NCBI GenBank assembly: GCA_964611285.1
Contig: CAZSZY010000001.1
Coordinates: forward strand, 1,593 to 65,592
Direction of reading: 5' to 3'
DNA length: 64,000 nucleotides
From: an uncultured Methanosarcinales archaeon
GTDB taxonomy: Archaea > Nanobdellota > Nanobdellia > Woesearchaeales > SKGA01
Notes under the pieces: model-generated
Database searches by the model: none
Told to the model about the DNA's origin: nothing
What the model saw: the letters and a program-made list of their open reading frames with translations, nothing else
Shown: one piece after another, positions 4,807 through 30,265 of the stretch
Position numbering within the stretch: position 1 is the stretch's first letter
Layout of the letters: every line of letters begins with the position of its first letter
Translations under genes and position numbers: made by a program

Positions 4807-4842
4807 ACACGTTCCTCTTTTTTGTTAAGTAATTATTCAAAA

Positions 4843-6546
4843 TTACTCTACAGTTATTTTTATTTGTGAGATGGTTACATCTCGTTGCGGTTCTATAATG
4901 AGAGAATTCGTTCCCTCTCGAACATATGGATTAATAATTTTTTTAACTCGAGAGTTATAGGTATTTACAGGCAATACACCTTCGCCGTTGAAGTTAAAAT
5001 TTACTTTTTTGTAAGAGTCATCTACAAAAAACATTTCTAAAAAGATATTAACTCCTGCTTTTAATTCTAGCTCTCCAGGTTCATCAGTAAATGTTGATGG
5101 ACAATTTGGTCTTTTTCTGTCTTCATCAATATATCCATCTGGACAAGCATCACATTCTGCAGAGGTAACTGCCGTTGTACAAATATCATCTACGCCAGTA
5201 TAAGGTACGTCAGCACACCAAAAAGTATTAGGTATTTCAAAGCAACAATCTTTATCATAATCGGCATGACAATTTGATGGGCAAATGCCATCAGTATCGT
5301 CGCCACATCGATTTTTACCATCTTCGTTTGGTTCTCCTTGATAGTCTTCATAGCCACTTGGACAACGATTAGCATAGCTTGCTAACACCATGTTTACACA
5401 TCGGTCTCGAGCATTATCTGTTTTAAAATCGCACCAATAATTATTTCTTGATTCTTTAAAGCAACAATCTTTGTCTTGATAACTGTCACAACCATTTGGA
5501 CAAACACCATCAACTCCTCCACAAAATTCATTATCTTCATCGACTCCGACAAAAAGATCTTCATCTAGTTTAAAATAATAAATCGGATATTCTGGGTCTG
5601 CGAGTTCAACATTAAGATTTACCTGATCAATAATGTAAGAACCATATTCAGAAACGAATTCTAGAGTGTTTTCGCCCGAACGAAGTGTTTCTTTTCCTAA
5701 GGAAACATGATTTTTAAGTCCGCAGTCAGGGATTCCATTGAAAATAGTTTCTCCATTAACCATAATATCAATTTTTCCTACGTTGACATTATCACAGTCT
5801 GGGAAAAAATCTAAAACTGCTTTTTCCATAGTATCATATTCTTTTGAGACGATGAAGAATTTTTGCATATTCATACTGTGAGAAGAATCAGTAATATCGC
5901 CTACAATTCTTAGATTTTGTAGTTCATACTCATTCACTCTCCAGAATGCAAAACCTGGACTTGAAACAGTAAAGTACAACACGTTATCGCTCTTCAAGTA
6001 ATCTTGAGGTAGTGCTATTGGTGTTGGTGTTCCTGTTTCGAGTGTTCCTTCAAAGAGTTGTAAGCCATTGAGGTATATTTTCAAAACACCTGCTGGTCTA
6101 TAGACATTAAATGAGAGATAAACCCGCTCTGTTGCGTATTTATCCACTGAGAAAGTAATTTCTTGTGCTTGTTTGTCAAATGCAGAGTTTTTAACATAAA
6201 GTGAGGCCACATTTTGTATGAGATTAGCATCCGTATCAGTATATATCGTAAAACTAGTGAGCGAGTGCTCTATTTCTGAATCTTTTATGTAGTTTATTTG
6301 TCCAACTTGTGTTGAAAGTGGTGTTGTTCCAATGAGATGTGAGTACCCAGTTGAACTTGCTTGTGGCGTTCCAGGAATTGCTTCATCGTTAAGCAGAGCT
6401 TCTCTTTCTTCCGGTGGAAGAAAAAGTATGTAAAAGATTACAATCAGCGTGATGAGAAGAACTAACAGCGCTGCACCACCAGCCCCTACAACTGTGTGGG
6501 CCTGTCCTTTTCGTTGAGTAGAGAATAGACTAGTCATATCATTCAT
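4843..6546 (-). CDS. Surface protein with an N-terminal signal anchor (possibly a class III/pilin-like signal, RKGQ followed by a hydrophobic stretch) and two tandem Cys-rich modules
   Basis: 567-aa ORF. N-terminus is ...QRKGQAHTVVGAGGAALLVLLITLIVIF. Two repeats, GVDGVCPNGCDSYQDKDCCF and TDGICPSNCHADYDKDCCF, each follow the pattern DGxCPxxCxxxYDKDCCF. Confidence 0.45.
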   Translation of the reverse strand: MNDMTSLFSTQRKGQAHTVVGAGGAALLVLLITLIVIFYILFLPPEEREALLNDEAIPGTPQASSTGYSHLIGTTPLSTQVGQINYIKDSEIEHSLTSFTIYTDTDANLIQNVASLYVKNSAFDKQAQEITFSVDKYATERVYLSFNVYRPAGVLKIYLNGLQLFEGTLETGTPTPIALPQDYLKSDNVLYFTVSSPGFAFWRVNEYELQNLRIVGDITDSSHSMNMQKFFIVSKEYDTMEKAVLDFFPDCDNVNVGKIDIMVNGETIFNGIPDCGLKNHVSLGKETLRSGENTLEFVSEYGSYIIDQVNLNVELADPEYPIYYFKLDEDLFVGVDEDNEFCGGVDGVCPNGCDSYQDKDCCFKESRNNYWCDFKTDNARDRCVNMVLASYANRCPSGYEDYQGEPNEDGKNRCGDDTDGICPSNCHADYDKDCCFEIPNTFWCADVPYTGVDDICTTAVTSAECDACPDGYIDEDRKRPNCPSTFTDEPGELELKAGVNIFLEMFFVDDSYKKVNFNFNGEGVLPVNTYNSRVKKIINPYVREGTNSLIIEPQRDVTISQIKITVE

Positions 6547-6560
6547 TCTAGGAGAGACAG

Positions 6561-6575
6561 TATTTAAAGGTTTCG
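6561..6575 (-). promoter_or_regulatory. BRE/TATA promoter element (cgaaacc-tttaaata on the minus strand) for the 4843..6546 gene
   Basis: tttaaata lies about 14-23 nt upstream of the first ATG codons. The identical 15-mer recurs at 19321..19335 in another upstream region. Confidence 0.4.
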
Positions 6576-6622
6576 CGCCAAATAAAGAAGTTCATTTATA
6601 AAGAAACTAAAAAGAATGCAAC

Positions 6623-7720
6623 TTAAGGCAACCACGTTTTTTTATTTGCAATTTTTTCTGGCAAATATTTGTCCATAACCATATTTAGCCCGTGTGCTGC
6701 AAATGCCTGCTGCTCTACACGAATTTTCTCTTTGGCCATTTTTTGCAAGGCTTTTTGCCACTCTTTATGGTCTTTAAAGAAAGGATCATTTTTGAGCATA
6801 TCTTTAATTTTCTTTAGGTCAATTTCCTTAAGTGGATGCGTTGGTAATTTATAATCCTCAATATCCTGAGGTGTTACGCCAATAAACGTTGCTTTTGGTA
6901 CACAAAAAAACTCATTAATGTGCGCTGCATTCCCACTTCCAACTTTGAGTGTTCGATAAATATTTCCATACCCATATGGATCTCCGTCCGTAAATACATA
7001 AACAGGTAGTTTTTGTTCATCAGAAAGTTTTCTAATAAACCGTCGACAAGCTCGCGTCGGCACACCACTCATAGCAACAAGTATACAATTCGCTTTTTGC
7101 CAATATTTATGTTTGTTCAAACGCTCAAACGCACCTTGTGTTTCTATTGCTAAAACAAACTTTGCTTTTGTTTCAAATTTTAAATGTTCAACTGATGAGG
7201 GAATAGAATATGCACCACTTCCAAATTTTGTGCAATCAATTTTAAGTTCTTTTTTTGTTTCAAAGTCAACATCAATTACAGTAAGTGCTCCTGCAACTGC
7301 ACCACCATGATCGCCAGGAACAAAACCCATTTTTTCCCTGTTAACATGAAGCATTGCTTCAATGTCATCCATAACACTATCTGATTCTGGTTGCTCACTA
7401 AATCGTGCATCGCCCCAGTTTTTAGAAACATAGTAGGCCTCTCTTTTTGTTGCACTGTCATCACTTTGTAAAAGCTCTTTTGATAATGCCATCATACGAA
7501 GCGTTTGTGCAAATGTTTTTATTGTGGTTGCAGTGAGAGAGCGCTCTTTCACCTTGTTTTGGATTTTAAAATAACCTTCTTTTTTGTCAAATTCGACATT
7601 ACTTAATGATCGTACAGGTGTTGTCATAACAGGAGGTTTTTTCTTTTTGACTGCTTGATAAATATTATTAGCTACAACTTTAATTTTATTTTCTACTTCT
7701 TTGTTTTCTTTAGCAGTCAT
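6623..7720 (-). CDS. top6A: DNA topoisomerase VI subunit A (Spo11/Top6A family)
   Basis: 365 aa with a winged-helix/Toprim layout. Top6A-like segments (YGNIYRTLKV, DGDPYGY-like Toprim acidic cluster) are present, and it sits immediately downstream of Top6B. Confidence 0.8.
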   Translation of the reverse strand: MTAKENKEVENKIKVVANNIYQAVKKKKPPVMTTPVRSLSNVEFDKKEGYFKIQNKVKERSLTATTIKTFAQTLRMMALSKELLQSDDSATKREAYYVSKNWGDARFSEQPESDSVMDDIEAMLHVNREKMGFVPGDHGGAVAGALTVIDVDFETKKELKIDCTKFGSGAYSIPSSVEHLKFETKAKFVLAIETQGAFERLNKHKYWQKANCILVAMSGVPTRACRRFIRKLSDEQKLPVYVFTDGDPYGYGNIYRTLKVGSGNAAHINEFFCVPKATFIGVTPQDIEDYKLPTHPLKEIDLKKIKDMLKNDPFFKDHKEWQKALQKMAKEKIRVEQQAFAAHGLNMVMDKYLPEKIANKKTWLP

Positions 7721-9457: not shown

Positions 9458-10252
9458 CTAGATACTCAAGCAAGCATTTTTGTTTTCATCAAGGACTAAT
9501 TCACTACAAAAAGTGGTTTCTCCAGCTATAATGAAGGTCATATAGCAATTATCTTTCTGTTCAATTGAAGTTATTTCTTGGCAGAGATTTGGATCATTGT
9601 ACGTTTCTGAAGTAACTTGGTAACAAATATCTCTTTTATTTTCATCTATAACTTCTTGACAAAGCCCTGTCGCTGTTTCTTTGTCTTCCGCTCGTAGCGC
9701 CAATAATAAAGCTGAATCTTTTCTTATTTCGTCTAGAGAAGGCGGCCCCATTTCTGTTTGTTCAAAAACAGGTCGATCTGATGTATTAACGTGTAATTCC
9801 GTCAAATCATCAACTAAAGGTATTTCTCCGCTAGGGGTATTAAATAAATATGCTAAGACTAGAATAAAAAGAACTATTGGCAAAATCATTATTATAGCTA
9901 TGGCGTCGGGTTTTTTCCATTTTTTCCCTGGTTTATGTTCTTTATCTTCGAAATGCTCCGATCCTATTTGTTTAAAAGTTTTATCTAATATTTTCTTTGA
10001 ATATCCTTCATCTTTAAGAGAAGAATATAATTGTTCTGCTTTATATCCTTGAGAAATATAACTTTCAACATAGTCTTTTAAGTCTGGTTGCTCTTTTTCG
10101 AGATGATCATGAGTTATTTCAGCAAATGCTGCAGCTATCATTTCTTTATTATAACCGTGATCTGCTAAATGTTCTTTGAGTTGCGCTCTAGAATAACCTT
10201 TCTGTAACTGCTCAATAATATAGTTTGCTAGCTCACTCACCATTCTTTTCAA
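9458..10252 (-). CDS. Hypothetical single-pass membrane protein with three ~30-aa N-terminal repeats and a Cys-containing C-terminal domain
   Basis: 264 aa. Repeats follow the pattern GY..(A/K)QL...L.D.GY.K..I. A central TM helix is IAIIMILPIVLFILVLAYLF. Confidence 0.35.
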   Translation of the reverse strand: MKRMVSELANYIIEQLQKGYSRAQLKEHLADHGYNKEMIAAAFAEITHDHLEKEQPDLKDYVESYISQGYKAEQLYSSLKDEGYSKKILDKTFKQIGSEHFEDKEHKPGKKWKKPDAIAIIMILPIVLFILVLAYLFNTPSGEIPLVDDLTELHVNTSDRPVFEQTEMGPPSLDEIRKDSALLLALRAEDKETATGLCQEVIDENKRDICYQVTSETYNDPNLCQEITSIEQKDNCYMTFIIAGETTFCSELVLDENKNACLSI

Positions 10253-11589: not shown

Positions 11590-11639
11590 CTATCTATCTC
11601 AAAAACATCTTCTCTTTTAAACTTTCTGAGAAAAAATGT

Positions 11640-11713
11640 GGGCCGGACGGGATTTGAACCCGCGACTTCACCGTCTTCAGCGGTGCGCTCTGCCAGTCTG
11701 AGCTACCAGCCCG
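11640..11713 (-). tRNA. tRNA-Phe (anticodon GAA), no encoded CCA
   Basis: The reverse complement reads GGGCUGG-UA-GCUCAGACUGGCAGAGC-GCACCGCUGAAGACGGUG-AAGUC-GCGGGUUCAAAUCCCGU-CCGGCCC-C. It folds as a cloverleaf with a 7-bp acceptor stem, a GCUC D-stem, anticodon loop CUGAAGA and a GGGUUCAAAUCCC T-arm. Confidence 0.8.
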
Positions 11714-11753: not shown

Positions 11754-13985
11754 CTATCCAGCAAGCTGTATATTGTTCATTACTTGACCTGAAACAACGT
11801 TGAAAAGAATGACAATAATAAATACAAGAACGCAATATATCATTGCTGATTTTGTCATGTTTTGCCCTAGTTCATATTGCTCACCAATAACATCAGGACC
11901 ATTTTCTATACCATTACCAATTACCGTCAAGATATATGCAAGCATGATTACATAGAGGCCTACAACTATCTGAAAATAATAGGTTGGAATTCCCGTTCCA
12001 AACATCGCTAAAAGTCCTGCGCCACCCATACCATCAGAACCCGCGGCAACTTTTCCTATTTGATCACCAAGAGTGCCCATAATATTTGTTATCATACTTG
12101 TAATTCCAACAACAACAGCAGAAATTACGGGTGTTAAAAAAAGTGCTTGACTTTTCATACTACTAATAACATCTCCCATTAAATCTTTGAGTCTTTCATC
12201 TACACGGTGCATTTGTTTAATATAATCAGAAACATTGATAATTGCTTGACTTGCTACTCGAGGTCCTTTTCTGCTTGATTCTACAAGAACTTTCATAGAA
12301 CTTTCAATAATATCGGACGGATAATATTTGAGTGCTCCTTTTTCTTTGTCAAAAATGGCTTGATGAACACTCATCCCTAAACGCGTTATATTAACATGTA
12401 CTAGCGTAAAGAATTTTCCCGAGATAGTATTTTGCATCGATTCTGCTACGCGCCCAAAAGCTGTTTCTGCTGGAATTCCATCTCCCAATCTATTTCCTAG
12501 TTGAAAAAGAGCAGATGAAAATTCTACCTCTAATGCTTTTGCTTGCTTTCGTATTTTTATTACATTTCCCGACTTTAACTTATAGAACAAGCCAATGCTC
12601 AATCCCACCCCCAAAGGCACAAATATACTAATAAGAAGCGCCCCCAAACCAAACGGACCAATAACATTGCCGGTTGGGTCATTATCAATAATTTCTTCTC
12701 TATACGCTAAAAATTTAACTTTTGCAAGTTGATCGGGGTTATATTGATCAACCATACCAAATCGCCAACCATTTCCATTATCTACAATTCCATAATCGGG
12801 AAGTCCCAAATTATACCAAATAAGTGGAGAAAAACCAATAAACAATAATACCAAACCAACAGCAGCAGCTAAAAATATTGGTTTAACAAATCTTTCTTTA
12901 TTACCTATTTTAATAACAATATTTTTGTATTTTTTTAATTCAGGATTTTTCTCAGTAATATCCTCATCACCCGATCCTCCAGGACGAGTTGATAAAATGT
13001 TTTTCCCTAAATAATAAACTATTGTTGGCAGTGCTAAATTATAAATTGCAAATAAATGATACCACTTAAATCCACCCATAAAACTTACAACTAAAGGTAA
13101 AATAACAAGCGTTAAGATTGGCAGAACAACACCCAACATGTTTAATGTTGTTAAAGGTGTTTTCAGACCATGAGCATAGTGAAGCATTTTTTCATATGTT
13201 TCATCTAGCATAACACTTAATGATTTATCCAAACTATTTAGTCGTCTATCATTACTTGCTTCGTAAAGTGAAGATTGTATAAGATGCATACTTTCTACAA
13301 ATTCTCGATTATATTTTTGCCAAGTTTCTAAATATGCGTTTAATGAATCTTTTAGTTCATCATATTTTTCTGTTTCAACATCCCATATTATTTTTCTTAA
13401 GTCAAGTGATAATGGAGGAGCTAAATGTTCTGCTGCAAAATTTATTGCTAATTCTAAGTTTGAAGTGTGACGCATGTAGGTCACCACATAAAATATTGCA
13501 AGCACCATCTGATTTGATGCTTTCATTCTCCACGTGTTAGCTAGCATAAATGGTAGTTTTTGTAGAGGTAGCATTAAAAGCAGTCCTCCAAAAAATGCAA
13601 AAATAACAAAGAACGTGTTTCCTTCTTGACCGAGAAGAACAGGAATCATAAAAAAAACAAGTACTGAAAAAAGAACAAGAAGTAATGGTACAAAAATGGA
13701 TGCGCTATTTACACCTGTTGGCGTTGTATTCAAATGACAAATATCTATTGCTTCTTGTAATTTGGGTGCTTTCTTATCGTCTGGTTTGAAAGGGAGTGTT
13801 TTCTCAGCTATCTGACAAAGTTTTTCATAAAAAGAAAGATGAGCGGGCATGTATTGTTGTTTAAAGTCATCATATGCTCGTGATGTGATAGTTTCGTCTT
13901 CTCCAGAGGCCTCTTTACCTGCAAGTTCATGCTCCAAACGTTCTTTAAAGAGCGAAGTTACTTTTTTAATATCAGGGTCGACCAT
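11754..13985 (-). CDS. Type II/IV secretion-system platform protein (FlaJ/TadC/GspF family), polytopic membrane
   Basis: 743 aa. Two cytoplasmic helical T2SSF-like repeats (around LAINFAAEHLAPPLSLDLRKII and RKGPRVASQAIINVSDYI) are each followed by TM bundles. It lies directly downstream of the secretion ATPase and the stop and start are adjacent. Confidence 0.55.
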   Translation of the reverse strand: MVDPDIKKVTSLFKERLEHELAGKEASGEDETITSRAYDDFKQQYMPAHLSFYEKLCQIAEKTLPFKPDDKKAPKLQEAIDICHLNTTPTGVNSASIFVPLLLVLFSVLVFFMIPVLLGQEGNTFFVIFAFFGGLLLMLPLQKLPFMLANTWRMKASNQMVLAIFYVVTYMRHTSNLELAINFAAEHLAPPLSLDLRKIIWDVETEKYDELKDSLNAYLETWQKYNREFVESMHLIQSSLYEASNDRRLNSLDKSLSVMLDETYEKMLHYAHGLKTPLTTLNMLGVVLPILTLVILPLVVSFMGGFKWYHLFAIYNLALPTIVYYLGKNILSTRPGGSGDEDITEKNPELKKYKNIVIKIGNKERFVKPIFLAAAVGLVLLFIGFSPLIWYNLGLPDYGIVDNGNGWRFGMVDQYNPDQLAKVKFLAYREEIIDNDPTGNVIGPFGLGALLISIFVPLGVGLSIGLFYKLKSGNVIKIRKQAKALEVEFSSALFQLGNRLGDGIPAETAFGRVAESMQNTISGKFFTLVHVNITRLGMSVHQAIFDKEKGALKYYPSDIIESSMKVLVESSRKGPRVASQAIINVSDYIKQMHRVDERLKDLMGDVISSMKSQALFLTPVISAVVVGITSMITNIMGTLGDQIGKVAAGSDGMGGAGLLAMFGTGIPTYYFQIVVGLYVIMLAYILTVIGNGIENGPDVIGEQYELGQNMTKSAMIYCVLVFIIVILFNVVSGQVMNNIQLAG

Positions 13986-13986
13986 T

Positions 13987-16401
13987 CTACTGTTTTGTTT
14001 CCTTTTGTTTTTTATCTATTCGTTTCATTTCGTTTTCTAGCCAATCATTCCATTCAAAATAAACAGCATCGGAATCTTCTCTTCCCAGACGCTTAATCAC
14101 TTTTTCCACTGTTTTATGAAATCGATCGTTTGCAAGAATAACAAATTCTGCTTCAATAAGTGAAGGAATATTTTTTTCTTGACTAATATCAAAAATTCGT
14201 TGTTTTATTTTTGCTCGAAGTTCAATATTGTTCCATAGAGCATCCCAATTACCTGTATACTCTTTTATTTTTGCAGCGATATCTTTGAGTATTTCGCTTT
14301 CTCCATTAAGTAGTTCTGGTGTTGGCTCTAGTTGGTCTGTTGCAGCATTGTATTTCATCAAGTCAACAAAACCTCCTTCAAGTCCAGGATCATCTTGCCA
14401 ATCTTTTCTTACTTCTGTAATTTGTAATACTCTTCTCATTTTATGCAGACCGTCCGCAGATTTAATTGGATTTGCAATAACAATAATGTCTGTTGCCTTA
14501 AAGGATGTTTTTGGAATACCAATATCATTAACCAATCGATCATAAATACCGTAAGGACTATCACCGTGAATAGTCCCTGCAACTACGTTTGCTGCAGCTC
14601 CTACTCGCATTGCTTCGTAAAGTGCTTTTGCTTCACCACTTCGTACTTCACCTACAATAAGTGCAGAGTCTCCTAAACGAAGCGTACTTCTAATACCATC
14701 TTCAGCACTAAACTCTTCACCGGATTTTGCAAGAGCACTTGCAACTTTTAGTGGTTGTATGTTAAATCCTAGTTTTCTCATAGATGTTGTTGGAAGTTCT
14801 AATGTATCTTCAATAGTAAGAATTCTGTGACGTCGCATAATTTCAATCAAAAGTGATGACAGAAAACTACTTTTACCACTACTTCTTGTTCCACAAACAA
14901 GTATTGTTCTTGTTCCATCAATTAAGAAAGAAAGAAGTCCTGCTGCCAATCCATTAATCATTTTGTATTTGATAAACAAAGGTAATGTCCATGGCTGATC
15001 TCTATGTCGCCGAAATGAAAATGCAAGCCCTGTTGGATTTAATGGAGAAGTAATAGTTGATGTTCGAACACTCGCTCCTGGAAGTTCTAGTTCGGTATCA
15101 AGAATTGGATTTGCTTCATCTAATGGTCGTCCAGAAATCATTCGTAATTTACTTGCCCAACTTTCACTATCACTAATAGTTGGGAAAATATTTGTTATAC
15201 AATCATCATAGTCTGCATGCACAATAAAGATAGGAATTTCTCCAGGTGGACTGTTCACGCTAATATCTTGAATTTTTTCATCTGAAAGTAAAACTTCCAC
15301 CAGACCAAAACCAACAGTATAACGAACAAGTATTCTTGCAAGTTCTTCATTATCTTCTTCAGTAATTTTTATATTTCTGTAGTTTGCTAGCTCAGAGATT
15401 AAATCTTTTCCTACATTATGAAAAACATCTCTCATTCTTTTTGGGTCGGTAAATTCATCTTTATCTGGTTTATGTTCTGAAAGTATTCTTCTTGCAGTAT
15501 CTAGTAAATCATAAAGTTCTTCGCTAAGTTTAAACTCTGGCGGCATGATGTGATAGAGATATTGTACAGAATCTGGTTTTTCAAAAATAACTATTTCTGT
15601 TTGTCCAACCATGTAGTTTTCTAGTTCTGTTGCGTTTTTTGGATACGCAGCCATAAGTTTGGTAAACATAAAATCTGGTTTTATAGTGGGGAAAAATATT
15701 CTTCGGTAAGGATCTCTATTTCCAATTTCATGTCCTTCAATATAGGGCTTTGCAACTACAAAAAATTTTGTTCCTTCAATCATTGAAGTAATATGATCTA
15801 AAAGTTGAATGTAATGTGTTTGACTGCGCACGAGCACAGAATCTACTTCTTTTTCTAATTGTATTTGTTCTCGACGACGAATTCTCTTTAAACGAACATA
15901 GCAAGATAATGGGTCTTTTTTAAGTTCTGTAAATAAAATATGATGGAGTTCATTATATTTTGAAGAAAGACTTGTTTCTGAAACGCTTTGTGCTAGTGAA
16001 GGATAACTAAAGAGGTCTTTATTTCGAACGAGTTTTGCATATAAACGAGAAATTTCCGCAAGCAATGTTACTTGAGGATAATCATATTCATAATCATGCT
16101 TTTGTGAGAAAATTATTTTTGTTGCTGTTGGATTTTCAACAAGCATAGTTATTGCTTCAGACATCGTGATTTCATCATCTTCTATTGATGGTATTCTACC
16201 ACGTGTATTGTAATCTACAAGCAATGTCGTGCCATCGCCTTCGCGATCCACTTCGTAATTTAGTTTTTTATCTGGCAAAAACACTCTCCCTCTTTTCACT
16301 CCCCAGTGAATATGTTTAGAGTACTCACTAAGTACAATGCAAACTGCAGTTTTACAATATATAAAACTTTGTTTACGCCGAATTTTCCGGTGGTTGCGCA
16401 A
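13987..16401 (-). CDS. Type IV pilus/archaellum assembly ATPase (FlaI/VirB11/CpaF family) with a long N-terminal extension
   Basis: 804 aa. It has Walker A GTRSSGKSS, an Asp box ILTIEDTLEL, Walker B/His box DSALIVGEVRSGEA...TIHGDSP, and roughly 350 extra N-terminal residues. Confidence 0.75.
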   Translation of the reverse strand: MRNHRKIRRKQSFIYCKTAVCIVLSEYSKHIHWGVKRGRVFLPDKKLNYEVDREGDGTTLLVDYNTRGRIPSIEDDEITMSEAITMLVENPTATKIIFSQKHDYEYDYPQVTLLAEISRLYAKLVRNKDLFSYPSLAQSVSETSLSSKYNELHHILFTELKKDPLSCYVRLKRIRRREQIQLEKEVDSVLVRSQTHYIQLLDHITSMIEGTKFFVVAKPYIEGHEIGNRDPYRRIFFPTIKPDFMFTKLMAAYPKNATELENYMVGQTEIVIFEKPDSVQYLYHIMPPEFKLSEELYDLLDTARRILSEHKPDKDEFTDPKRMRDVFHNVGKDLISELANYRNIKITEEDNEELARILVRYTVGFGLVEVLLSDEKIQDISVNSPPGEIPIFIVHADYDDCITNIFPTISDSESWASKLRMISGRPLDEANPILDTELELPGASVRTSTITSPLNPTGLAFSFRRHRDQPWTLPLFIKYKMINGLAAGLLSFLIDGTRTILVCGTRSSGKSSFLSSLLIEIMRRHRILTIEDTLELPTTSMRKLGFNIQPLKVASALAKSGEEFSAEDGIRSTLRLGDSALIVGEVRSGEAKALYEAMRVGAAANVVAGTIHGDSPYGIYDRLVNDIGIPKTSFKATDIIVIANPIKSADGLHKMRRVLQITEVRKDWQDDPGLEGGFVDLMKYNAATDQLEPTPELLNGESEILKDIAAKIKEYTGNWDALWNNIELRAKIKQRIFDISQEKNIPSLIEAEFVILANDRFHKTVEKVIKRLGREDSDAVYFEWNDWLENEMKRIDKKQKETKQ

Positions 16402-16457
16402 GAAATAGGTCTTTTCTCAGGAAATATTTATAAGACGAGTTCATCTTAATAAGTGTT

Positions 16458-16949
16458 ATGACTGAGCCAAAGCTTTTTCCTGAAGGTCCAACACCTGAAG
16501 AACATGTTGCAAAACATCAAAATAAAGAAGAAACATTGCAACCAATTAACACCAAAGTTAATGATATTGCTACTCGATTAAAAATTCTTGAAGAAAGATA
16601 TATGACTTTAAAAAAAAAATCTCAACTTGGTGAGCAAAATATTGTAGAAGCTCAAAAAGATCACTTTGAAGAGTTGCAGATACTTAATGAGAACTTGATG
16701 GAAACAAAACACGCCATCAGAGATATAACTGAGAAAGTAAGCTTGCTAAGTCAAGAAGTGAGTAATTTTGCTACAAAAAATGACTTAACTGTTCTGCAAC
16801 GGTATGTGGAATTTTGGGAACCAATGGATTTTGTAACAAGAAAAGAAGTAAACGCATTTCTAAGAAAGAAATTAGGAAAACCGAAGTCCGTCAGTACGCC
16901 AAACGAGAAAAAATCTGCTTCAGATATTACTTCCTTAGATCATCAGTAA
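16458..16949 (+). CDS. Hypothetical coiled-coil protein
   Basis: 163-aa ORF on the strand opposite the pilus-module genes, and convergent with them. I recognise no motif. Confidence 0.3.
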   Translation: MTEPKLFPEGPTPEEHVAKHQNKEETLQPINTKVNDIATRLKILEERYMTLKKKSQLGEQNIVEAQKDHFEELQILNENLMETKHAIRDITEKVSLLSQEVSNFATKNDLTVLQRYVEFWEPMDFVTRKEVNAFLRKKLGKPKSVSTPNEKKSASDITSLDHQ

Positions 16950-17328
16950 TTCTTGATAATTCTGAAACGTTTTCTGTAAATATAGGCAGTACTTTTGCAA
17001 ATACTTTTTCCATGGCTTTAAGTTCTGCACCAACATCTAAGATGTGTTGATCATATTCCCCAACTTTTCCAATGACTGCTTGATGTAGTTTATCAAATTC
17101 ATCTCGCATATCTTGAAGTTGTTGTTGCATAGATGTTAATTTACTATCAGCTACGTTTTTCCACTCAATAATTTTAGTAATATCTTTTACTAAATCATTC
17201 CATTTTTCATCAATGATTGCTTCAATAAGTTCTTCATTGGTTGTTTGGAATTGTTGTTGAGACTGGAGCGGCTGCTGCATTGGAGGCGGCGGTGCCAGTC
17301 CTGGAGACGGGGGATTTGGTGGTAACAT
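16927..17328 (-). CDS. Hypothetical protein with a Pro/Gln-rich N-terminus and a coiled-coil; positioned like an archaellum/pilus accessory protein
   Basis: 133 aa. It sits between the paralogous membrane proteins and the ATPase gene on the same strand. Confidence 0.3.
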   Translation of the reverse strand: MLPPNPPSPGLAPPPPMQQPLQSQQQFQTTNEELIEAIIDEKWNDLVKDITKIIEWKNVADSKLTSMQQQLQDMRDEFDKLHQAVIGKVGEYDQHILDVGAELKAMEKVFAKVLPIFTENVSELSRITDDLRK

Positions 17329-17365
17329 GTTTTCACTCTCTTTTTTATTTGTACTTTAACTAAGC

Positions 17366-18046
17366 TTATGGTAATTGTGTTTTTGCTAAAAACATTATAG
17401 TAAACATGCCGATGAGCATAAGCATTATCATTCCCAATATTTTTGGATGAACTATTGTTTGGAGCACGTTGTCTCCAAAGTCATCTGATGCTGTCGAACC
17501 CGATTGACCTGCTTGATCCGTAACATCTGTCTGAATATCATTAAAGGAAGGATTGTCATACACATCAATTGAGCCATCGTTTGGAACTTGCTCTACTGGA
17601 ACATAATTTTCAGTTCCGTCTGTTGCTGTTATTCCTGGTTGTTCTTCTAAAAGCCGCTGACCATACGTTGAAGATAAGGAAACGATAAGTATGATAATAA
17701 AAATAACTGCCAATATCCAATAAACGCTTGGAGTCTTAATCATTGTTTCAAATATGCCATTGTCATCTCCTACAAACATGCGTAAGACAAAAAATATCAA
17801 AAATAAAAAAATAATAAGTACGGTAAACCAAGGCGTCATCGTTGTAATTATAGAGAACGTGTCTTGAGACACCATTGCTAGAAAAGCAAACGCTAATGCT
17901 ATAATTGCATAAAGTCCTTTTGAACTTGAATTATCTTTTAGTATATTGGTTACCAGTAAGAAACCATAGACTATAGCAAAGACTATGAGGAATACGAATA
18001 TTCCTGAAAAGTGTTGAAAAATACTTAAGTCCAAAAATGTTGCCAT
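17366..18046 (-). CDS. Polytopic small membrane protein, paralog 3 of a tandem triplet
   Basis: 226 aa, 4-5 TM segments. Its N-terminal hydrophobic core is related to the two upstream paralogs. Confidence 0.4.
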   Translation of the reverse strand: MATFLDLSIFQHFSGIFVFLIVFAIVYGFLLVTNILKDNSSSKGLYAIIALAFAFLAMVSQDTFSIITTMTPWFTVLIIFLFLIFFVLRMFVGDDNGIFETMIKTPSVYWILAVIFIIILIVSLSSTYGQRLLEEQPGITATDGTENYVPVEQVPNDGSIDVYDNPSFNDIQTDVTDQAGQSGSTASDDFGDNVLQTIVHPKILGMIMLMLIGMFTIMFLAKTQLP

Positions 18047-18070
18047 GGTTTAGTATCTCAAATAATTATT

Positions 18071-18676
18071 TTATTGGTTTTGATCGCTTTCAAAAAAGTC
18101 CTTGAGACCTTTAGCTGCGGATTTTTTCTCTCTCTCTTCCGGCGTCTTCTCATCAGCTGCAATAAACTTAATAATAAGTCCAAAGACAAGTACTGCTACA
18201 ATAAGCGGCATGACGTCACTGTTTAAAATTCGCCATATAAAAGACGCATTTTGAAATGTACCCATAGATGTCAAAAAGATTCCAAGTACTGTTAATCCTG
18301 AAATAAGTGTAAACCAAATACCAATACCTTTTGATCCATCTGGTGTTTTACCAGTCCAAAGACCAATAGTTAAAAGCATCATCACAATTGCCACTAAAAG
18401 AAGTCCTATTCCTGCTAAAGATTGGTTAATAACTTCTACAATTGTTTTTCCGTGAAAAAATACGACGCCGTAGAAATGTGAAAATACTACAGAAAGTGCA
18501 ACTACAAGAGCTACAACCGAACCATATTTTTTTACTTGATGTTTTTCTTTACCTAAAACCTTTGTCTTTTCCAACACCGCAAAAACTATGGTAAAAATGA
18601 GTATGAAAGGTAAAAGTACTTCAAACACACCCCATTGTTGCAAAGATTGAATCATTCCATCAAAACCGTAATACAT
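18071..18676 (-). CDS. Polytopic small membrane protein, paralog 2
   Basis: 201 aa. The motif VLLPFILIFTIVFAVLEKTKVLG is shared with the 18720..19295 product (VVLPFILVFTLFFAFLEKSKVLG). Confidence 0.4.
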   Translation of the reverse strand: MYYGFDGMIQSLQQWGVFEVLLPFILIFTIVFAVLEKTKVLGKEKHQVKKYGSVVALVVALSVVFSHFYGVVFFHGKTIVEVINQSLAGIGLLLVAIVMMLLTIGLWTGKTPDGSKGIGIWFTLISGLTVLGIFLTSMGTFQNASFIWRILNSDVMPLIVAVLVFGLIIKFIAADEKTPEEREKKSAAKGLKDFFESDQNQ

Positions 18677-18719
18677 ATTATCGCCTCGTGTTATTTATTT
18701 TTTAATAGTAGTATTTAAA

Positions 18720-19295
18720 TTATGTCTCTTCGCCAGAGCCACCTTTTTGAGGTTTAGTAACCCAAACCATGAAGCCAACGAAGACCAAAATCATTAAAAT
18801 TGTTGCAACACCTGCACTATCCCAACTTCGTAAGAGAAAGTTGTAAATAGCATCAAGCCAGCCCATTGCGTTAAATAAAATGAGCAATATGCCTAGCGCA
18901 CTCACAATCCAAAAACCCATCTTCCATCCTTTACCCATCGTACCTAAGTCAAACTCTTTATCTCCTGTATGGGTAACACCTACTGCTAAAATAAACATAA
19001 GACCTGTAACAATAAGGATTACAGTGTTAGCAATTACTTCGCTGATGATTCTGACGAGTTGTGCTGATGCGACTACGAAAAATGCCGCTGAAAAAGCAAT
19101 GATAGCGTTTAGATTTTTTCTCGTGAAACGATGCTCAGTTCCTGTTTTGTCTTTTATAACTTCAATCCCTAATACTTTGGATTTTTCTAAAAATGCAAAA
19201 AACAAGGTGAAGACAAGGATGAAAGGTAAAACTACATCATACACGCCTATCTTTGCCATAAAAGCAATTGTTCCGCTGAGAATGCTATCTGCCAC
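18720..19295 (-). CDS. Polytopic small membrane protein, paralog 1 (GTG start as drawn; the true start may be internal)
   Basis: 191 aa. It has the shared motif and 4 TM segments. A promoter 15-mer lies 25 nt upstream. Confidence 0.4.
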   Translation of the reverse strand: MADSILSGTIAFMAKIGVYDVVLPFILVFTLFFAFLEKSKVLGIEVIKDKTGTEHRFTRKNLNAIIAFSAAFFVVASAQLVRIISEVIANTVILIVTGLMFILAVGVTHTGDKEFDLGTMGKGWKMGFWIVSALGILLILFNAMGWLDAIYNFLLRSWDSAGVATILMILVFVGFMVWVTKPQKGGSGEET

Positions 19296-19456: not shown

Positions 19457-20062
19457 ATGGGGTTAAAAAATATTCAACAATTCAAAGAAGAGTTATCTCG
19501 TTTGCAACAAAATTACGAACAAGATGATATAACTCGAGAAGAAATCATAACATTTGCACGAAAAGCATTAAAACCTGCTAAACAAGCAATTTACGCCGCT
19601 CATCGAAATGATCTAACTGAAGCAGAAAAACTACTAGAAACTGCAAAAGATGCAATTAATGAAGCACACAAGCGCCTTGAAGCATCAGGTCTTCGCGATG
19701 TAGGTATGCTGCATGCAAGCGTTGAAGAATATATTGAAGGTCTATGTTATGTCTCATTCATTAAAAACGGTTCGCTTCCTTTGCTTAGTGATCTTAACTT
19801 AACGTTTACTCCTAAACCCGAAACATATTTACAAGCCATGTGTGATTGTGCTGGCGAGTTATCTCGACGTGCAGTTATTGCCGCTACAAAAAATGAAAAA
19901 AACGTAGTCGTAACTATTCACGAAACATTAGGTGAACTTCTAGAGTTATTTATGGAGTTTGATTTTCGCTCTAGCGAACTTCGCAAAAAAACAGAGAACT
20001 TAAAATATAGTTTAAACAAAGTAGAAAGTATTTTGTATGATTTACAGGTGAAGGCAAGATGA
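19457..20062 (+). CDS. Translin-family-like helical nucleic-acid-binding protein (tentative)
   Basis: 201 aa and all-helical. The overall pattern resembles translin/TRAX. The assignment rests on resemblance only. Confidence 0.35.
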   Translation: MGLKNIQQFKEELSRLQQNYEQDDITREEIITFARKALKPAKQAIYAAHRNDLTEAEKLLETAKDAINEAHKRLEASGLRDVGMLHASVEEYIEGLCYVSFIKNGSLPLLSDLNLTFTPKPETYLQAMCDCAGELSRRAVIAATKNEKNVVVTIHETLGELLELFMEFDFRSSELRKKTENLKYSLNKVESILYDLQVKAR

Positions 20063-20685
20063 AACGAACGGTTACACAGAAAAATAATCGTGGAAAATTA
20101 GTTGTGGGAATTATTGCAGCTATCATTGTAATTTTAATTATAGGATATTTAGTTATTACAAACTTGTCAGCTTATGCGGGTGAAGACGAAATGGTAAATG
20201 AAAAAATTGTTACAATCAGCACATCAAAAGGAAATATTGTTGTCCAGCTTAACGAAGCAGAAGCACCTATTACTGTTGCAAACTTTAAACAATATGTAAA
20301 AGAAGAATTTTATAATGGAACTGTATTTCACAGAGTTATTAAAGATTTCATGGTTCAAGGTGGAGGGTTTACACCTGATGGCAATCAAAAGAAAACAAGC
20401 GCACCAATTGTTCTAGAAGCCGGATTAAGTAATGATAGAGGCACAATCGCAATGGCCAGAACTAATGATCCTAACAGTGCAACAACACAATTTTTTATCA
20501 ATCACGCAGATAATGGATTTCTCAATCCATCACCTGGCAATCCTGGTTATGCTGTTTTTGGAAAAGTAATTAGCGGCATGGATGTTGTTGATGAAATTGC
20601 AAAAGTGCAAACAAAGGATGGTGATTGGCCTGTTGAAAATGTTATGATTACTAGCATCACTTTTGGAGGAGAAATCAATGTATAG
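20059..20685 (+). CDS. Cyclophilin-type peptidyl-prolyl cis-trans isomerase with an N-terminal membrane anchor
   Basis: 208 aa. Cyclophilin signatures are FHRVIKDFMVQGGGF and TNDPNSATTQFFIN. An N-terminal TM helix is present and the start overlaps the upstream stop (ATGA). Confidence 0.85.
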   Translation: MKRTVTQKNNRGKLVVGIIAAIIVILIIGYLVITNLSAYAGEDEMVNEKIVTISTSKGNIVVQLNEAEAPITVANFKQYVKEEFYNGTVFHRVIKDFMVQGGGFTPDGNQKKTSAPIVLEAGLSNDRGTIAMARTNDPNSATTQFFINHADNGFLNPSPGNPGYAVFGKVISGMDVVDEIAKVQTKDGDWPVENVMITSITFGGEINV

Positions 20686-22378
20686 AACACATACTTGTGG
20701 AGAACTTCGAGCAACTGATGTTGATAAAAAAGTAATGCTTGCGGGATGGGTGCACACTATTCGAACTCATGGCGCATTAACATTCATTGATCTTCGAGAC
20801 CGATACGGAATCACACAAATTGCTGCAAACAAAGAATTAGCAGAAAACATTACTAAAGAATCTGTTGTACAAGTTAAAGGAAGCGTGCTCAAAAAACCTG
20901 AAGCAAACAAAGCGTTAGCAACTGGCGAAGTAGAACTTAAAGCAACAGAAGTTACTCTTTTAAACAAATCAAAACCACTTCCTCTAGCACTTGGTAATCC
21001 TGAAACAACAGAAGAAACTCGATTAAAATATCGTTATCTTGATTTGCGAACAAAAAACATGCAGAAAAATCTTATTTTACGTCATAAAGCCACCATTGCT
21101 ATTCGAGAATATTTTGATAAAGAAGGATTCTTAGAATTAGAAACTCCAATTCTTGGTAAAAGTACTCCTGAAGGTGCGAGAGACTATCTTGTACCTAGCC
21201 GAGTTAATCAAGGAAAATTTTATGCTCTTCCTCAAAGTCCTCAAATTTTCAAACAATTGTTTCAAGTTTCTGGTTTGGATAAATATATGCAAATTGTAAA
21301 GTGCTTTCGTGACGAAGATCTTCGTGCAGACCGACAACCAGAATTTACACAAATTGATTTGGAAATGAGTTTTGTTGAAGAAGATGATATTTACAAGTTA
21401 CTTGAAGGAATGATTAAACATGTGTGGAAGAAAACACTTGATGTTGATATCCCAATTCCATTCCCTAGACTAAAATATGAAGAAGCAATGCTCAAGTATG
21501 GTAGTGATAAACCAGACCTTCGATTCGATTTAGAAATTGAGGATGTAACAAAGTGGGCTAAAACTACTGACTTTGGCGTCTTTAAAGAAGCAGAATGTAT
21601 TCGTGCGCTAAAAGTAAAAGAGAACTTTTCTAGAAAACAAATCGACAAGTTAACTGATGTTGTCAAAATTTATGGTGCTAAAGGTTTAGCATTCCTTAAA
21701 CTTGAAGAAGGTCAACTTGCTGGCGGTATCGCTAAATTTGTTAAAGACGCACCATTCAACTTAGAAGAAGGAGAAACTGTTTTCTTTGTAGCTGACATAC
21801 AGCGTACTGTTGCACCTGCACTTGGCGCTCTTCGAAGTCATCTTGGTAAAGAGCTTAATCTTATCAATAAAGATGCTTGGGAATTCGTTTGGATTACTGA
21901 GTTTCCTCTTATGGAATGGAGTGAAGAACGACAATCTTGGGGGCCTATGCATCATCCATTTACCAGTCCAACGCTGGGAGATAGAGCATTACTAAAAACA
22001 ACTCCTGAGAAAGCGAGTTCTCGAGCTTACGATTTAGCATTAAATGGGGTCGAGCTTGGCGGTGGAAGTATTCGGATTCATGATCGAGCTCTTCAAGAAG
22101 AAGTGTTTGATGCATTAAATATTTCTCGAGAAGAACAAGAACGAAAGTTTGGTTTCATGCTTGGTGCTTTTGAATATGGCGCTCCACCTCATGGTGGTTT
22201 AGCATTTGGTCTTGATAGAATAATCATGATGCTTGTTGGTGCAGACAATATTCGAGAAGTTATGGCATTTCCTAAAAACAAAGATGCTCAAGATTTAATG
22301 ATGGATTCACCTAGTGATGCAGAAGATGAGCAACTTGAAGAATTAGGAATTAACATAAAAACACTCAAAAACAAATAA
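20663..22378 (+). CDS. aspS: Aspartyl-tRNA synthetase, bacterial type (with GAD insertion domain)
   Basis: 571 aa. It has class II motifs and the bacterial-type signatures LRYRYLDLR, QSPQIFKQL, FTQIDLEMSF and GGGSIRIHD. The length fits the bacterial type, not the ~430-aa archaeal type. Confidence 0.85.
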   Translation: MEEKSMYRTHTCGELRATDVDKKVMLAGWVHTIRTHGALTFIDLRDRYGITQIAANKELAENITKESVVQVKGSVLKKPEANKALATGEVELKATEVTLLNKSKPLPLALGNPETTEETRLKYRYLDLRTKNMQKNLILRHKATIAIREYFDKEGFLELETPILGKSTPEGARDYLVPSRVNQGKFYALPQSPQIFKQLFQVSGLDKYMQIVKCFRDEDLRADRQPEFTQIDLEMSFVEEDDIYKLLEGMIKHVWKKTLDVDIPIPFPRLKYEEAMLKYGSDKPDLRFDLEIEDVTKWAKTTDFGVFKEAECIRALKVKENFSRKQIDKLTDVVKIYGAKGLAFLKLEEGQLAGGIAKFVKDAPFNLEEGETVFFVADIQRTVAPALGALRSHLGKELNLINKDAWEFVWITEFPLMEWSEERQSWGPMHHPFTSPTLGDRALLKTTPEKASSRAYDLALNGVELGGGSIRIHDRALQEEVFDALNISREEQERKFGFMLGAFEYGAPPHGGLAFGLDRIIMMLVGADNIREVMAFPKNKDAQDLMMDSPSDAEDEQLEELGINIKTLKNK

Positions 22379-29044: not shown

Positions 29045-30265
29045 ATGGGCATAGGTACGGCTATACGAAAACTTGTTGATATCAAGACTAAACAAGCAGT
29101 AGCTGTATGGGAATTTAATACAACCGATAAACTCATAGCGCCTCCGGCAACATACAAAAACACCATTATTGTTGGCACGCGAAAAGGAAGAGTCATGCAA
29201 CTAAACAATAAAGGTGAGATTATTTGGACGTTTCATCCTCATGAAAATGTCTCTTCACAAGAAGCATTATTCTTAGATGAAGATAATGTGTATGGTATTA
29301 ATGATGAGCCATTAATTTTTTCTAATGAAAATCAAGAACACATTTTAGTAGTTTCTGAGTTCGGCATATTGTATTGTCTTTCTAATGAAGGCAAGTTGGA
29401 ATGGAAAGTAGAAACAGATGGTCCTTTGCGAGCTTCACCAAAAATAAGTATGTTCTCTGCAAAAAGTGAGCGAATATTCTTGGGTTCTCATGACGGATTC
29501 GTATATATCGTCACATTAGAAGGAAAAGTTGAACACAAGTTTGAAGTGGGAACGCCTATTGAAACAAGACCGGTAATTACTGGTGAGCAAATTATTGTTG
29601 GAACGGCCAAGGGTGAAGTTGTCTCGCTTGACAGAGAAGGACGAATAAGTTGGCGATTTAAGACAGGCGATAAAATTGTAGCACACATGACTATTGCTGA
29701 ACTTCGAAGCGGTCAAGGATTAACTCTTCTTGTTGGTTCTCAAGATAAACAATTATATGCATTATCGCTTGATGGCGAACCACAATGGACCTTCCAAACA
29801 GAAGGAACTATTCTAGCACAACCCATAGCATTTGATATCAATAATGACGGACACAAGGAAATTCTTCTTGCATCATGCGATAACAGAATTTACTGCTTAA
29901 CAGCGTTTGGTGAAGAAATATGGAGTTATGAAACAGATTTCTGGATAACAACAGCACCACTAGTTGCAGATATTGATGGCGATGGAACCATAGAAGTAGT
30001 TGTAGGTAGCTTAGATAGTAAAGTATATGTCTTTGACGGTCAAGGCAGCTATAAATTAGATTACATTCCTGGACTGGGCGGCATAGTACACCAAACAGGC
30101 CATTATTCAGGTAATATGAATAAAGATGTTGGTAAAAATCAAGGAAAGCTCTTATGTGAGTTCCAAACAGATAATGATGTTGTTGGCTGTACATACTTAA
30201 AAAGCAGCAAAACAATCATTGCAGGGACCAAAAAAGGGAAAATATATAATATAAAAGTTAATTAA
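29045..30265 (+). CDS. PQQ-like beta-propeller repeat protein
   Basis: 406 aa with repeated roughly 40-aa blades of the form hhhGoxDGxhYxhD, for example VVVGSLDSKVYVFDGQG and LLASCDNRIYCL. Confidence 0.6.
   Translation: MGIGTAIRKLVDIKTKQAVAVWEFNTTDKLIAPPATYKNTIIVGTRKGRVMQLNNKGEIIWTFHPHENVSSQEALFLDEDNVYGINDEPLIFSNENQEHILVVSEFGILYCLSNEGKLEWKVETDGPLRASPKISMFSAKSERIFLGSHDGFVYIVTLEGKVEHKFEVGTPIETRPVITGEQIIVGTAKGEVVSLDREGRISWRFKTGDKIVAHMTIAELRSGQGLTLLVGSQDKQLYALSLDGEPQWTFQTEGTILAQPIAFDINNDGHKEILLASCDNRIYCLTAFGEEIWSYETDFWITTAPLVADIDGDGTIEVVVGSLDSKVYVFDGQGSYKLDYIPGLGGIVHQTGHYSGNMNKDVGKNQGKLLCEFQTDNDVVGCTYLKSSKTIIAGTKKGKIYNIKVN

Follow-up and report, generated by a model that had tools for sequence, protein, structure and literature searches.

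Two conserved type IV pilus-like loci have been described across cluster-2 DPANN archaea, in Woesearchaeota, Nanoarchaeota, Pacearchaeota, Aenigmarchaeota and other lineages, each encoding a CpaF-like ATPase, TadC and coiled-coil proteins, with filament genes found in only one of the two (Hamm et al. 2024, Nat Commun, PMC11291902). The coiled-coil proteins were found in that work through their association with the ATPase and TadC and were suggested to resemble viral attachment fibres; in Ca. Nanohaloarchaeum antarcticus, the copies of the ATPase/TadC/coiled-coil locus are expressed at the protein level (PMC11291902). Here we describe a seven-gene locus in a 64,000-nucleotide (nt) stretch of contig CAZSZY010000001.1 (hereafter, the window; G+C content 35%), whose proteins have their closest relatives in metagenome-assembled genomes of Woesearchaeota and Nanoarchaeota, that is, of DPANN archaea. 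The locus (hereafter, the module) encodes a secretion ATPase, a membrane platform protein, three small paralogous membrane proteins (A, B, and C) and two coiled-coil proteins (cc133 and cc163) (Table 1), and is a very divergent type IV pilus-like membrane machine that is kept across the tiny, symbiotic DPANN archaea. An earlier note on this DNA had taken it for a module that assembles structures of the type IV pilus/archaellum superfamily and includes a secretion ATPase together with a platform of the FlaJ/TadC type, and this core reading is borne out. The six open reading frames (ORFs) that the note assigned to the module are all present on the minus strand, at the coordinates given there, but a seventh conserved gene, cc163, had been missed.

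The likeness to the loci of Hamm et al. is close. Here, as there, a CpaF-like ATPase and a TadC-like platform are flanked by one or two soluble coiled-coil proteins, and the lineages match; furthermore, their Locus 2 is without filament genes, as is the module in the window. Because both the architecture and the lineages match, the window locus is a further member of an already noted, uncharacterised system and is most likely their pilin-less locus. Locus 1 of that work is resembled by a different, pilin-bearing cluster with a P-loop KaiC-like ATPase in a related genome (L081). The main text of Hamm et al. does not mention three paralogous proteins with five transmembrane (TM) segments, a cryptic T2SSF domain, an N-terminal domain of the ATPase or a slow evolutionary rate; the paralog triad, the cryptic double-T2SSF platform, the relative-less N-terminal domain of the ATPase and the slow evolution are added by the present analysis. 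In contrast to the fibre suggestion, the coiled-coil proteins of the window have neither a signal peptide nor a membrane segment.

Comparison with better characterised systems reveals a mixture of shared and distinct features. The archaeal adhesion pili surveyed by Makarova et al. (2016, PMC4858521), namely, Haloferax PilB/PilC, Methanococcus Epd and Sulfolobales Aap/Ups, likewise combine an ATPase of the FlaI/GspE/TadA clade with an adjacent TadC/FlaJ-type platform, and their pilins, which bear class III signals, may have their genes at another site. The module differs from these pili in that its ATPase is about 250 amino acids (aa) longer and contains a family-specific N-terminal domain, its platform is undetectable by Pfam, the locus includes no pilins, nothing in those systems corresponds to the accessory set (three 5-TM paralogs plus two coiled-coil proteins), and sequence evolution is much slower than described for those pili. 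With the archaellum core (FlaI, FlaJ, FlaH), the module shares FlaI as the best curated model for its ATPase and a platform that is one long double-T2SSF protein, like FlaJ; however, the ATPase scores less than a quarter of the FlaI cutoff, and FlaH, FlaF, FlaG and archaellin are absent from the module. In the case of the bacterial Tad/Flp pilus (CpaF/TadA, TadB, TadC), CpaF is the second-best solved relative of the ATPase and the same mechanism is to be expected, whereas TadB and TadC are two single-repeat proteins in place of the one module protein with both repeats, and no other Tad components are found in the module. Finally, subclade 4D of the Thermoproteales comprises pilin-less, divergent two-gene ATPase systems with a possibly changed function (PMC4858521). 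These resemble the module in several ways: the ATPase is divergent and carries an additional N-terminal domain, its membrane partner cannot be recognised as TadC from the sequence, pilins are missing from the locus, and the function is suspected to have changed; in the module, by contrast, the partner is a double-T2SSF protein, five further genes are conserved, the lineage is different, and there is no link to TFIIB or RNA polymerase.

The ATPase and its platform protein

The ATPase contains a T2SSE domain (PF00437; 54.7 bits against a cutoff of 24.9, E = 8.5e-15, Pfam) with the full set of secretion-ATPase motifs, as originally described: the Walker A motif, Asp box, Walker B motif and His box are all intact, and the enzyme looks functional. 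In the family alignment of 31 sequences, conservation is highest in the motif-bearing region, and across residues 376–625 the window residue is matched in 71–96% of the sequences per 25-residue block. The ATPase was placed by its relative scores against curated models and solved structures. The best NCBIfam model is FlaI (NF058587; 128.6 bits, E = 2.9e-37, equivalog cutoff 550), followed by TadA/CpaF (TIGR03819; 104.6 bits, cutoff 373), VirB11 (TIGR02788; 62.6, cutoff 250) and TrbB (TIGR02782; 62.3, cutoff 305); none of the cutoffs is reached, and the VirB11 and TrbB matches are confined to the RecA-like core. Among the structures in the PDB, the best match is the Archaeoglobus GspE (afGspE, 2oap; E = 3.5e-26), ahead of CpaF (2.9e-21), FlaI (2.3e-15) and VirB11 (3.5e-7). 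The ATPase thus scores highest with models of archaeal FlaI, GspE and TadA/CpaF, VirB11/TrbB falling far behind, in keeping with the initial assignment; by this order of scores, it belongs in the archaeal FlaI/GspE/TadA group, not with the conjugative VirB11, and is an equivalog of no characterised enzyme. A second, canonical ATPase in the related genome L081 scores about twice as high as the module ATPase against the best-matching references; therefore, the module ATPase represents a divergent branch.

The ATPase had been noted as oversized, at 804 aa. It is indeed longer than FlaI, but the figure of 804 aa is that of the longest ORF, with a TTG start at 16401, and is wrong. Because an identical database protein (P0001) is 765 aa long, starting with MFLPDKKL, and the full-length homologs among the matches listed are mostly 752–796 aa, we assign the start to the GTG at 16284, which is preceded by the purine-rich GAGGGAGA. 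The resulting 765-aa protein is still about 250 aa longer than its solved relatives (afGspE, 511 aa; FlaI, 513 aa). The extra length is mainly that of a family-specific N-terminal region of about 220 aa, which is confidently predicted (predicted local distance difference test score, pLDDT, of 86) to consist of a small beta-beta-alpha-beta-beta unit and a helical bundle; a recognisable relative of this region was sought both by sequence and by fold, and none was found. One ATPase homolog (P0035), 74% identical to the window protein, is 1293 aa long and carries precomputed Pfam matches to PF14528 and PF14890, which we take to be intein and homing-endonuclease families; these matches indicate a probable intein inserted in a highly conserved ATPase gene.

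The 743-aa platform protein has no match in Pfam, NCBIfam or PDB, either as a single sequence or as a 25-sequence profile, and does not reach the direct gathering score of the T2SSF family (PF00482). Its description as FlaJ/TadC-like in the earlier note is nevertheless upheld, by two cryptic T2SSF repeats that come to light through transitive homology and fold; the lack of such repeats would, by that note, have spoken against its reading. An exhaustive profile search for platform relatives yielded 1,232 cluster representatives. Of 43 divergent full-length members of the family (23–48% identical to the window protein), 20 match PF00482, with a best E-value of 1.1e-15, and four match the related SpoIIIAB family; one family member carries the NCBI name 'type II secretion system F family protein'. 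When the repeats located by alignment with these members are searched as sub-sequences of the window protein, repeat 1 aligns with positions 9–125 of the 125-position T2SSF profile (E = 0.18) and repeat 2 with positions 4–117 (E = 7.7), and the family profile matches the EpsF chain in the region of repeat 2 (E = 0.029). The cytoplasmic helical-bundle fold of GspF/PilC is likewise found in the window protein. On the basis of this transitive homology and fold, the platform is a double-T2SSF protein. A comparison of the platform family profile with the two single-sequence T2SSF proteins of L081 was uninformative (hhalign probability <2%), probably because the templates are single sequences. The beta-strand-rich domain between the two halves (modelled with strands at 356–367, 398–411 and 421–442) shows the lowest conservation in the family alignment and is predicted to face the outside, given the inferred topology.

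Conserved gene order and the five accessory proteins

In a genome scan with one genome per species, platform relatives were detected in 488 species-representative genomes. The 80 best records come, where lineage-labelled, from Woesearchaeota, Nanoarchaeota/Nanoarchaeia or Nanobdellota, and the rest of them are named 'archaeon' only or carry labels taken as placeholders or mis-assignments; the platform family extends to Aenigmarchaeota. Gene order was compared across 85 related loci, that is, 83 from Woesearchaeota/Nanoarchaeia plus the two most distant ones, from Aenigmatarchaeota (L084) and from a distant metagenome contig (L085). Of the 83 loci, about 70 have the ATPase gene next to that of the platform, and 39 of the 55 informative ones (those with at least 5 kb upstream of the ATPase) contain the complete accessory set of five genes, in one fixed order, A-B-C-cc133-cc163-ATPase-platform. 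All seven gene types are kept in L084 and L085 as well; the gene order, the recurrence of which the earlier note had proposed to check, thus recurs in related genomes up to Aenigmatarchaeota. Most commonly, both coiled-coil genes lie on the strand opposite to the triad and the ATPase-platform pair; the orientation of cc133 in the window is the second commonest. In a few genomes (L025, L054, L060, L073), no ATPase gene adjoins the platform gene, and therefore the pair can be unlinked; in L025, a 148-aa ORF and an oppositely oriented 634-aa ORF stand where the ATPase would be.

Each of the three paralogs contains about five hydrophobic segments, so these are polytopic membrane proteins and, as the earlier note held, not pilins. 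They had further been described as tandem paralogs sharing one motif: all three are related, C at the profile level only, but the motif is found in A and B only, with FVFLIVFAIVYGFLLVTNIL in its place in C. Paralogs A and B are 31% identical (E = 4e-14), and A matches the B family with a probability of 99.9% (E = 7e-34, hhalign). The BLASTP match of C to B is weak (E = 0.006), and a profile-profile comparison with hhalign links C to the B family with a probability of 97.5% (E = 4.8e-12, 109 columns). None of the three matches a Pfam or NCBIfam family. The B family comprises 119 database proteins which, where named, are nearly all from Woesearchaeota or Nanoarchaeota, and has essentially no Pfam domains. 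A relationship between the paralogs and the platform family was considered and rejected (hhalign probability 1.8%). Across the 83 loci, orthologs of A were detected in 41, always as the first gene of the triad, B in 42, and C in 42, always as the third. Because orthologs of each single paralog stand in the same order in other genomes, the triplication is old.

The gene for cc163 was detected in 54 of the 83 loci, adjoining the ATPase gene and divergent from it, and has homologs in L084 (E = 1e-14) and L085 (E = 1e-30); the C-terminus of the protein carries a conserved W-x-P-M-x-F-V-T-R motif. Members of the cc133 family are 50–67% identical to the window protein in the family alignment, with 25 invariant columns. 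The orthologs have a median length of 213 aa, and the cc133 of the window is a short form, without the UBA-like three-helix N-terminal domain that is present in most of them and that, in the long forms, gives weak Raf1_HTH and UBA matches (Pfam). Hydrophobic segments were sought in both coiled-coil proteins and none was found (maximum Kyte-Doolittle, KD, value of 0.89 in cc133), so that both are predicted to be soluble. Pfam scans of 24–25 members of each of the two families and a PDB profile search with the cc133 family returned generic coiled-coil matches only; those of the two families include BLOC1_2, syntaxin, occludin and phage tail fibre.

Two side observations concern these accessory proteins. 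In L084, extra genes (3793–4254, 4278–5093 and 5831–6652) stand between the paralog triad and the coiled-coil genes; their products combine an N-terminal membrane region, with the paralog-like motif FFIPFAIVFLISYGIFERMKIF, and a C-terminal coiled coil, and the extra protein of 153 aa weakly matches the paralog profiles (E = 0.004–0.06 in a small database). If real, these fusions hint that the paralogs and the coiled-coil proteins may interact. In addition, several proteins that are otherwise unrelated share a short helical motif, Q-G-Y-x(4)-I-x(3)-L-x(3)-G-Y-x(4)-I-x(2)-A: it occurs twice in a 264-aa membrane protein of the window (9458–10252, minus strand), at the C-terminus of a 181-aa membrane protein (56830–57375, minus strand) beside a gene cluster at 57–64 kb of the window, at the N-terminus of long cc133 orthologs (L001, 7790–8476), and, in three to four copies, at the N-terminus of the canonical L081 ATPase of 827 aa (15824–18307). 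In Pfam, it gives weak matches to Raf1_HTH, UBA_3 and RecX_HTH1; it looks like a UBA- or RecX-type three-helix unit and could be an adaptor domain common to envelope and pilus proteins of DPANN archaea.

Transcription units and genomic surroundings

The gaps within the run of paralogs A, B and C and cc133 are 43, 24 and 37 nt, whereas cc163, on the opposite strand, overlaps the 3' end of the cc133 gene by 23 nt. A single nucleotide separates the stop codon of the ATPase gene from the ATG of the platform gene, and the two are translationally coupled. The gene spacing suggests three transcription units, namely, the paralogs with cc133, cc163 alone, and the ATPase with the platform. In the region between the divergent cc163 and ATPase genes, the sequence contains a TATA-like ATTTATAA at 16426–16433, 32 nt upstream of the cc163 ATG, and a TATA-like TTTTATATA on the minus strand at 16358–16366, about 75 nt upstream of the ATPase GTG; putative promoters would thus face both ways. 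A scan for bacterial (sigma-70) promoters and terminators showed no enrichment over shuffled sequences, such a scan not being applicable to archaea.

The module is bounded by a tRNA gene on one side and, on the other, by genes for a translin-like protein, a cyclophilin-type protein (a label given from its sequence alone) and aspartyl-tRNA synthetase (AspRS). Because AspRS is also found beside the module in 27 of the related loci, and the translin-like protein in 18, the module sits within a conserved housekeeping neighbourhood. Many public records with a Woesearchaeota-type module are titled 'uncultured Methanosarcinales archaeon' (for example, L004, L010, L018 and other TPA records), and single module homologs are labelled Patescibacteria (P0301) and Thermoproteota (P0065). 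All these labels look like placeholder names or mis-binned contigs and not like true occurrence outside DPANN.

Table 1 Features of the module and of the rest of the window
Feature	Position	Strand	Remarks
Platform protein, 743 aa	11754..13985	-	~9 TM; two cryptic T2SSF repeats with a beta-rich domain between them
T2SSF repeat 2, residues 493-622	12120..12509	-	Pfam T2SSF matches of P0468 (E = 7.4e-9) and P0499 mapped by alignment
Beta-strand-rich platform domain, residues 356-442	12660..12920	-	between the halves
T2SSF repeat 1, residues 166-297	13095..13490	-	Pfam T2SSF matches of P0447, P0476 and P0505 mapped by alignment
Secretion-superfamily ATPase, 765 aa	13987..16284	-	GTG start; N-terminal domain of ~220 aa, FlaI/GspE-type N-domain, RecA-like core, C-terminal extension
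T2SSE catalytic core	14473..15087	-	Pfam match
His box AGTIHG, residues 569-574	14563-14580	-	765-aa numbering
Walker B IVGEVR, residues 543-548	14641-14658	-	765-aa numbering
Asp box IEDTLEL, residues 491-497	14794-14814	-	765-aa numbering
Walker A GTRSSGKS, residues 465-472	14869-14892	-	765-aa numbering
ATPase N-terminal extension, residues 1-225	15610..16284	-	
Intergenic region, 173 nt	16285..16457		between divergent cc163 and ATPase genes; TATA-like boxes in both directions (putative promoters)
cc163, 163 aa	16458..16949	+	coiled coil; divergent from the ATPase gene
cc133, 133 aa	16927..17328	-	Pro/Gln-rich N-terminus, strongly conserved C-terminal helical domain
Paralog C, 226 aa	17366..18046	-	~5 TM; divergent; acidic loop of ~70 aa between TM4 and TM5
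Paralog B, 201 aa	18071..18676	-	~5 TM; motif LLPFILIFTIVFAVLEKTKVLG
Paralog A, 191 aa	18720..19295	-	~5 TM; motif VLPFILVFTLFFAFLEKSKVLG
tRNA-Phe (GAA)	11638-11712	-	bounds the module on one side
Translin-like protein, cyclophilin-type ORF, AspRS	19457-22378	+	bound the module on the other side
Beta-propeller protein	29045-30265	+	adjoins the KaiC/FlaH-like gene
KaiC/FlaH-like ATPase	30271-31101	+	PF06745, E = 1e-33; homolog in the canonical pilus cluster of L081
Four consecutive proteins, 1305, 221, 277 and 317 aa	57363-63800	-	N-termini class III-like

A probable pilin-handling machine and its alternatives

The interpretation that we favour, and consider moderately probable, is that the module is a DPANN-specific form of a pilin-handling type IV filament machine, with subunits encoded elsewhere. 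Under this scenario, the ATPase would form a hexamer and dock on the T2SSF domains of the platform, and ATP-driven movement of the platform would lift pilins with class III signals from the membrane into a surface filament; these pilins would be encoded elsewhere in the genome to which the window belongs and directly downstream of the module in some other lineages. By analogy, the three paralogs may surround the platform in the membrane as a hetero-oligomeric collar or stator, with the acidic loop of paralog C exposed to the outside, and the two coiled-coil proteins may act in the cytoplasm as a scaffold or ring by which the ATPase is positioned or regulated, in a role comparable to that of FlaX, FlaCDE or PilM-type accessories. 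Given the lifestyle of DPANN archaea, the filament would most likely serve attachment to, or exchange with, the host cell. The connection to pilins comes from other loci: directly downstream of the platform gene, L084 and L085 encode several proteins with class III signals (MVLNKKG/LSTL, MRKG/VSLPVEF, MRAQG/LPLNF), and L003 encodes one (MRKG/QFALEF), which would tie the module to pilin-like substrates.

Several observations weigh against this interpretation. The module in the window itself encodes no pilin, prepilin peptidase or secreted protein, and pilin-like genes occur only inconsistently within 10 kb of the module in the Woesearchaeota loci. Related genomes contain a separate canonical pilus cluster with its own ATPase (in L081, an 827-aa T2SSE ATPase, two single-repeat T2SSF proteins, a KaiC/FlaH-like ATPase and pilins), so pilins elsewhere in the genome can be accounted for without the module. 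Among the known accessories of pili and archaella, no relatives of the accessory proteins could be detected, which is why their roles are assigned by analogy only. Finally, for pilus machinery, the evolution of the module is unusually slow: components of archaeal pili have been described as evolving fast (PMC4858521), whereas the median identity of the ATPase is 72.8%, compared with 49.7% for AspRS, and is higher than that of AspRS in all 11 genomes compared, the platform being more conserved than AspRS in 7 of the 11. AspRS paralogy could inflate this contrast; against an asparaginyl-tRNA synthetase-like (AsnRS-like) protein, the figures are 61% and 66.5%. As for candidate subunits in the window, the four proteins encoded at 57–64 kb have the N-terminal sequences KKG/G, KKG/V, KKG/Q and KKA/S, each followed by a hydrophobic stretch, and close to the C-terminus, the 1305-aa protein weakly matches a VanY-like peptidase (E = 0.0033, below the cutoff); no homologs of these proteins were found within 10 kb of the module in any of the 85 loci. 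The earlier note had suggested this cluster as a plausible source of the filament subunits, for which gene neighbourhood gives no support. A second T2SSE ATPase was not found in the window.

Much of this would fit an alternative that we regard as rather unlikely, namely, that the system has left filament assembly, the ATPase-platform engine being re-used for another envelope task that is ancient and possibly essential to DPANN cells, such as transport of protein, lipid or nucleic acid at the site of host contact, or membrane remodelling. The three 5-TM paralogs would then be a conduit or stator of a new kind, and the coiled-coil proteins a cytoplasmic scaffold. Besides the lack of pilins in the Woesearchaeota modules and the separate canonical pilus cluster, such a role would account for conservation at or above the level of an aminoacyl-tRNA synthetase, in a housekeeping neighbourhood, and for an ATPase so far from characterised relatives that it scores about half as high as its canonical paralog; the pilin-less two-gene systems of Thermoproteales subclade 4D provide a precedent (PMC4858521). 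The pilin genes directly downstream of the platform in L084 and L085 argue against a change of this kind, as does the module itself, in which no channel-like or substrate-binding domain was identified. Furthermore, all characterised T2SSE-T2SSF pairs known to us act on pilin-like subunits.

It could also be supposed that the paralogs and the coiled-coil proteins are mere neighbours of the ATPase-platform pair, unrelated to it in function, given that they belong to separate transcription units of varying orientation, that 16 of the 55 informative loci have no triad nearby, and that no sequence link to pilus proteins was found. We consider this improbable because the order is kept where the platforms are only about 25–35% identical, including in Aenigmatarchaeota, while the flanking genes differ, and such persistence of seven genes is unexpected without functional coupling; moreover, the coiled-coil proteins have been independently tied to the ATPase and TadC (PMC11291902). 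Slightly less probable again is an archaellum, that is, a rotary swimming motor. FlaI as the best NCBIfam model, a long FlaJ-like platform with two T2SSF repeats, and the KaiC/FlaH-like gene elsewhere in the window would point that way, but the FlaI score is far under the cutoff, the best solved structure is afGspE, not FlaI, and none of FlaH, FlaF, FlaG, FlaC/D/E/X or archaellin is found in the module or in the conserved neighbourhood across the 85 loci; the FlaH-like gene lies 14 kb away, and its L081 homolog is part of the other, canonical cluster. A conjugation or DNA-transfer ATPase of the VirB11/TrbB type, suggested by weak model matches of 62–63 bits, is effectively refuted, as these matches fall only in the shared RecA-like core, at about half the FlaI/TadA scores and far below the cutoffs, the partner is a platform of the T2SSF type, a component missing from VirB11 systems, genes for VirB4, VirD4 or a relaxase are absent nearby, and the module is chromosomal, single-copy and vertically conserved between housekeeping flanks.

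A large part of archaeal diversity belongs to the DPANN lineages, which rely on physical contact with their hosts, by a molecular apparatus of which, to our knowledge, next to nothing has been described. Whether it handles pilins, as we favour, or not, the module is among the few envelope machines that are both lineage-wide and highly conserved in DPANN archaea, and, with five of its seven proteins having no known relatives outside these lineages, it offers a defined, tractable target in the few cultivated DPANN species. The targets for such tests are sharpened by the recognition of the paralogs as a conserved part of the machine, of a double-T2SSF platform that is missed by databases, and of evolution slower than that of a tRNA synthetase. 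If the module has departed from filament assembly, its AspRS-level conservation and the existence of a separate canonical pilus cluster would make sense, and a machine of this type that builds no filament would constitute a new functional branch of the type IV filament superfamily.

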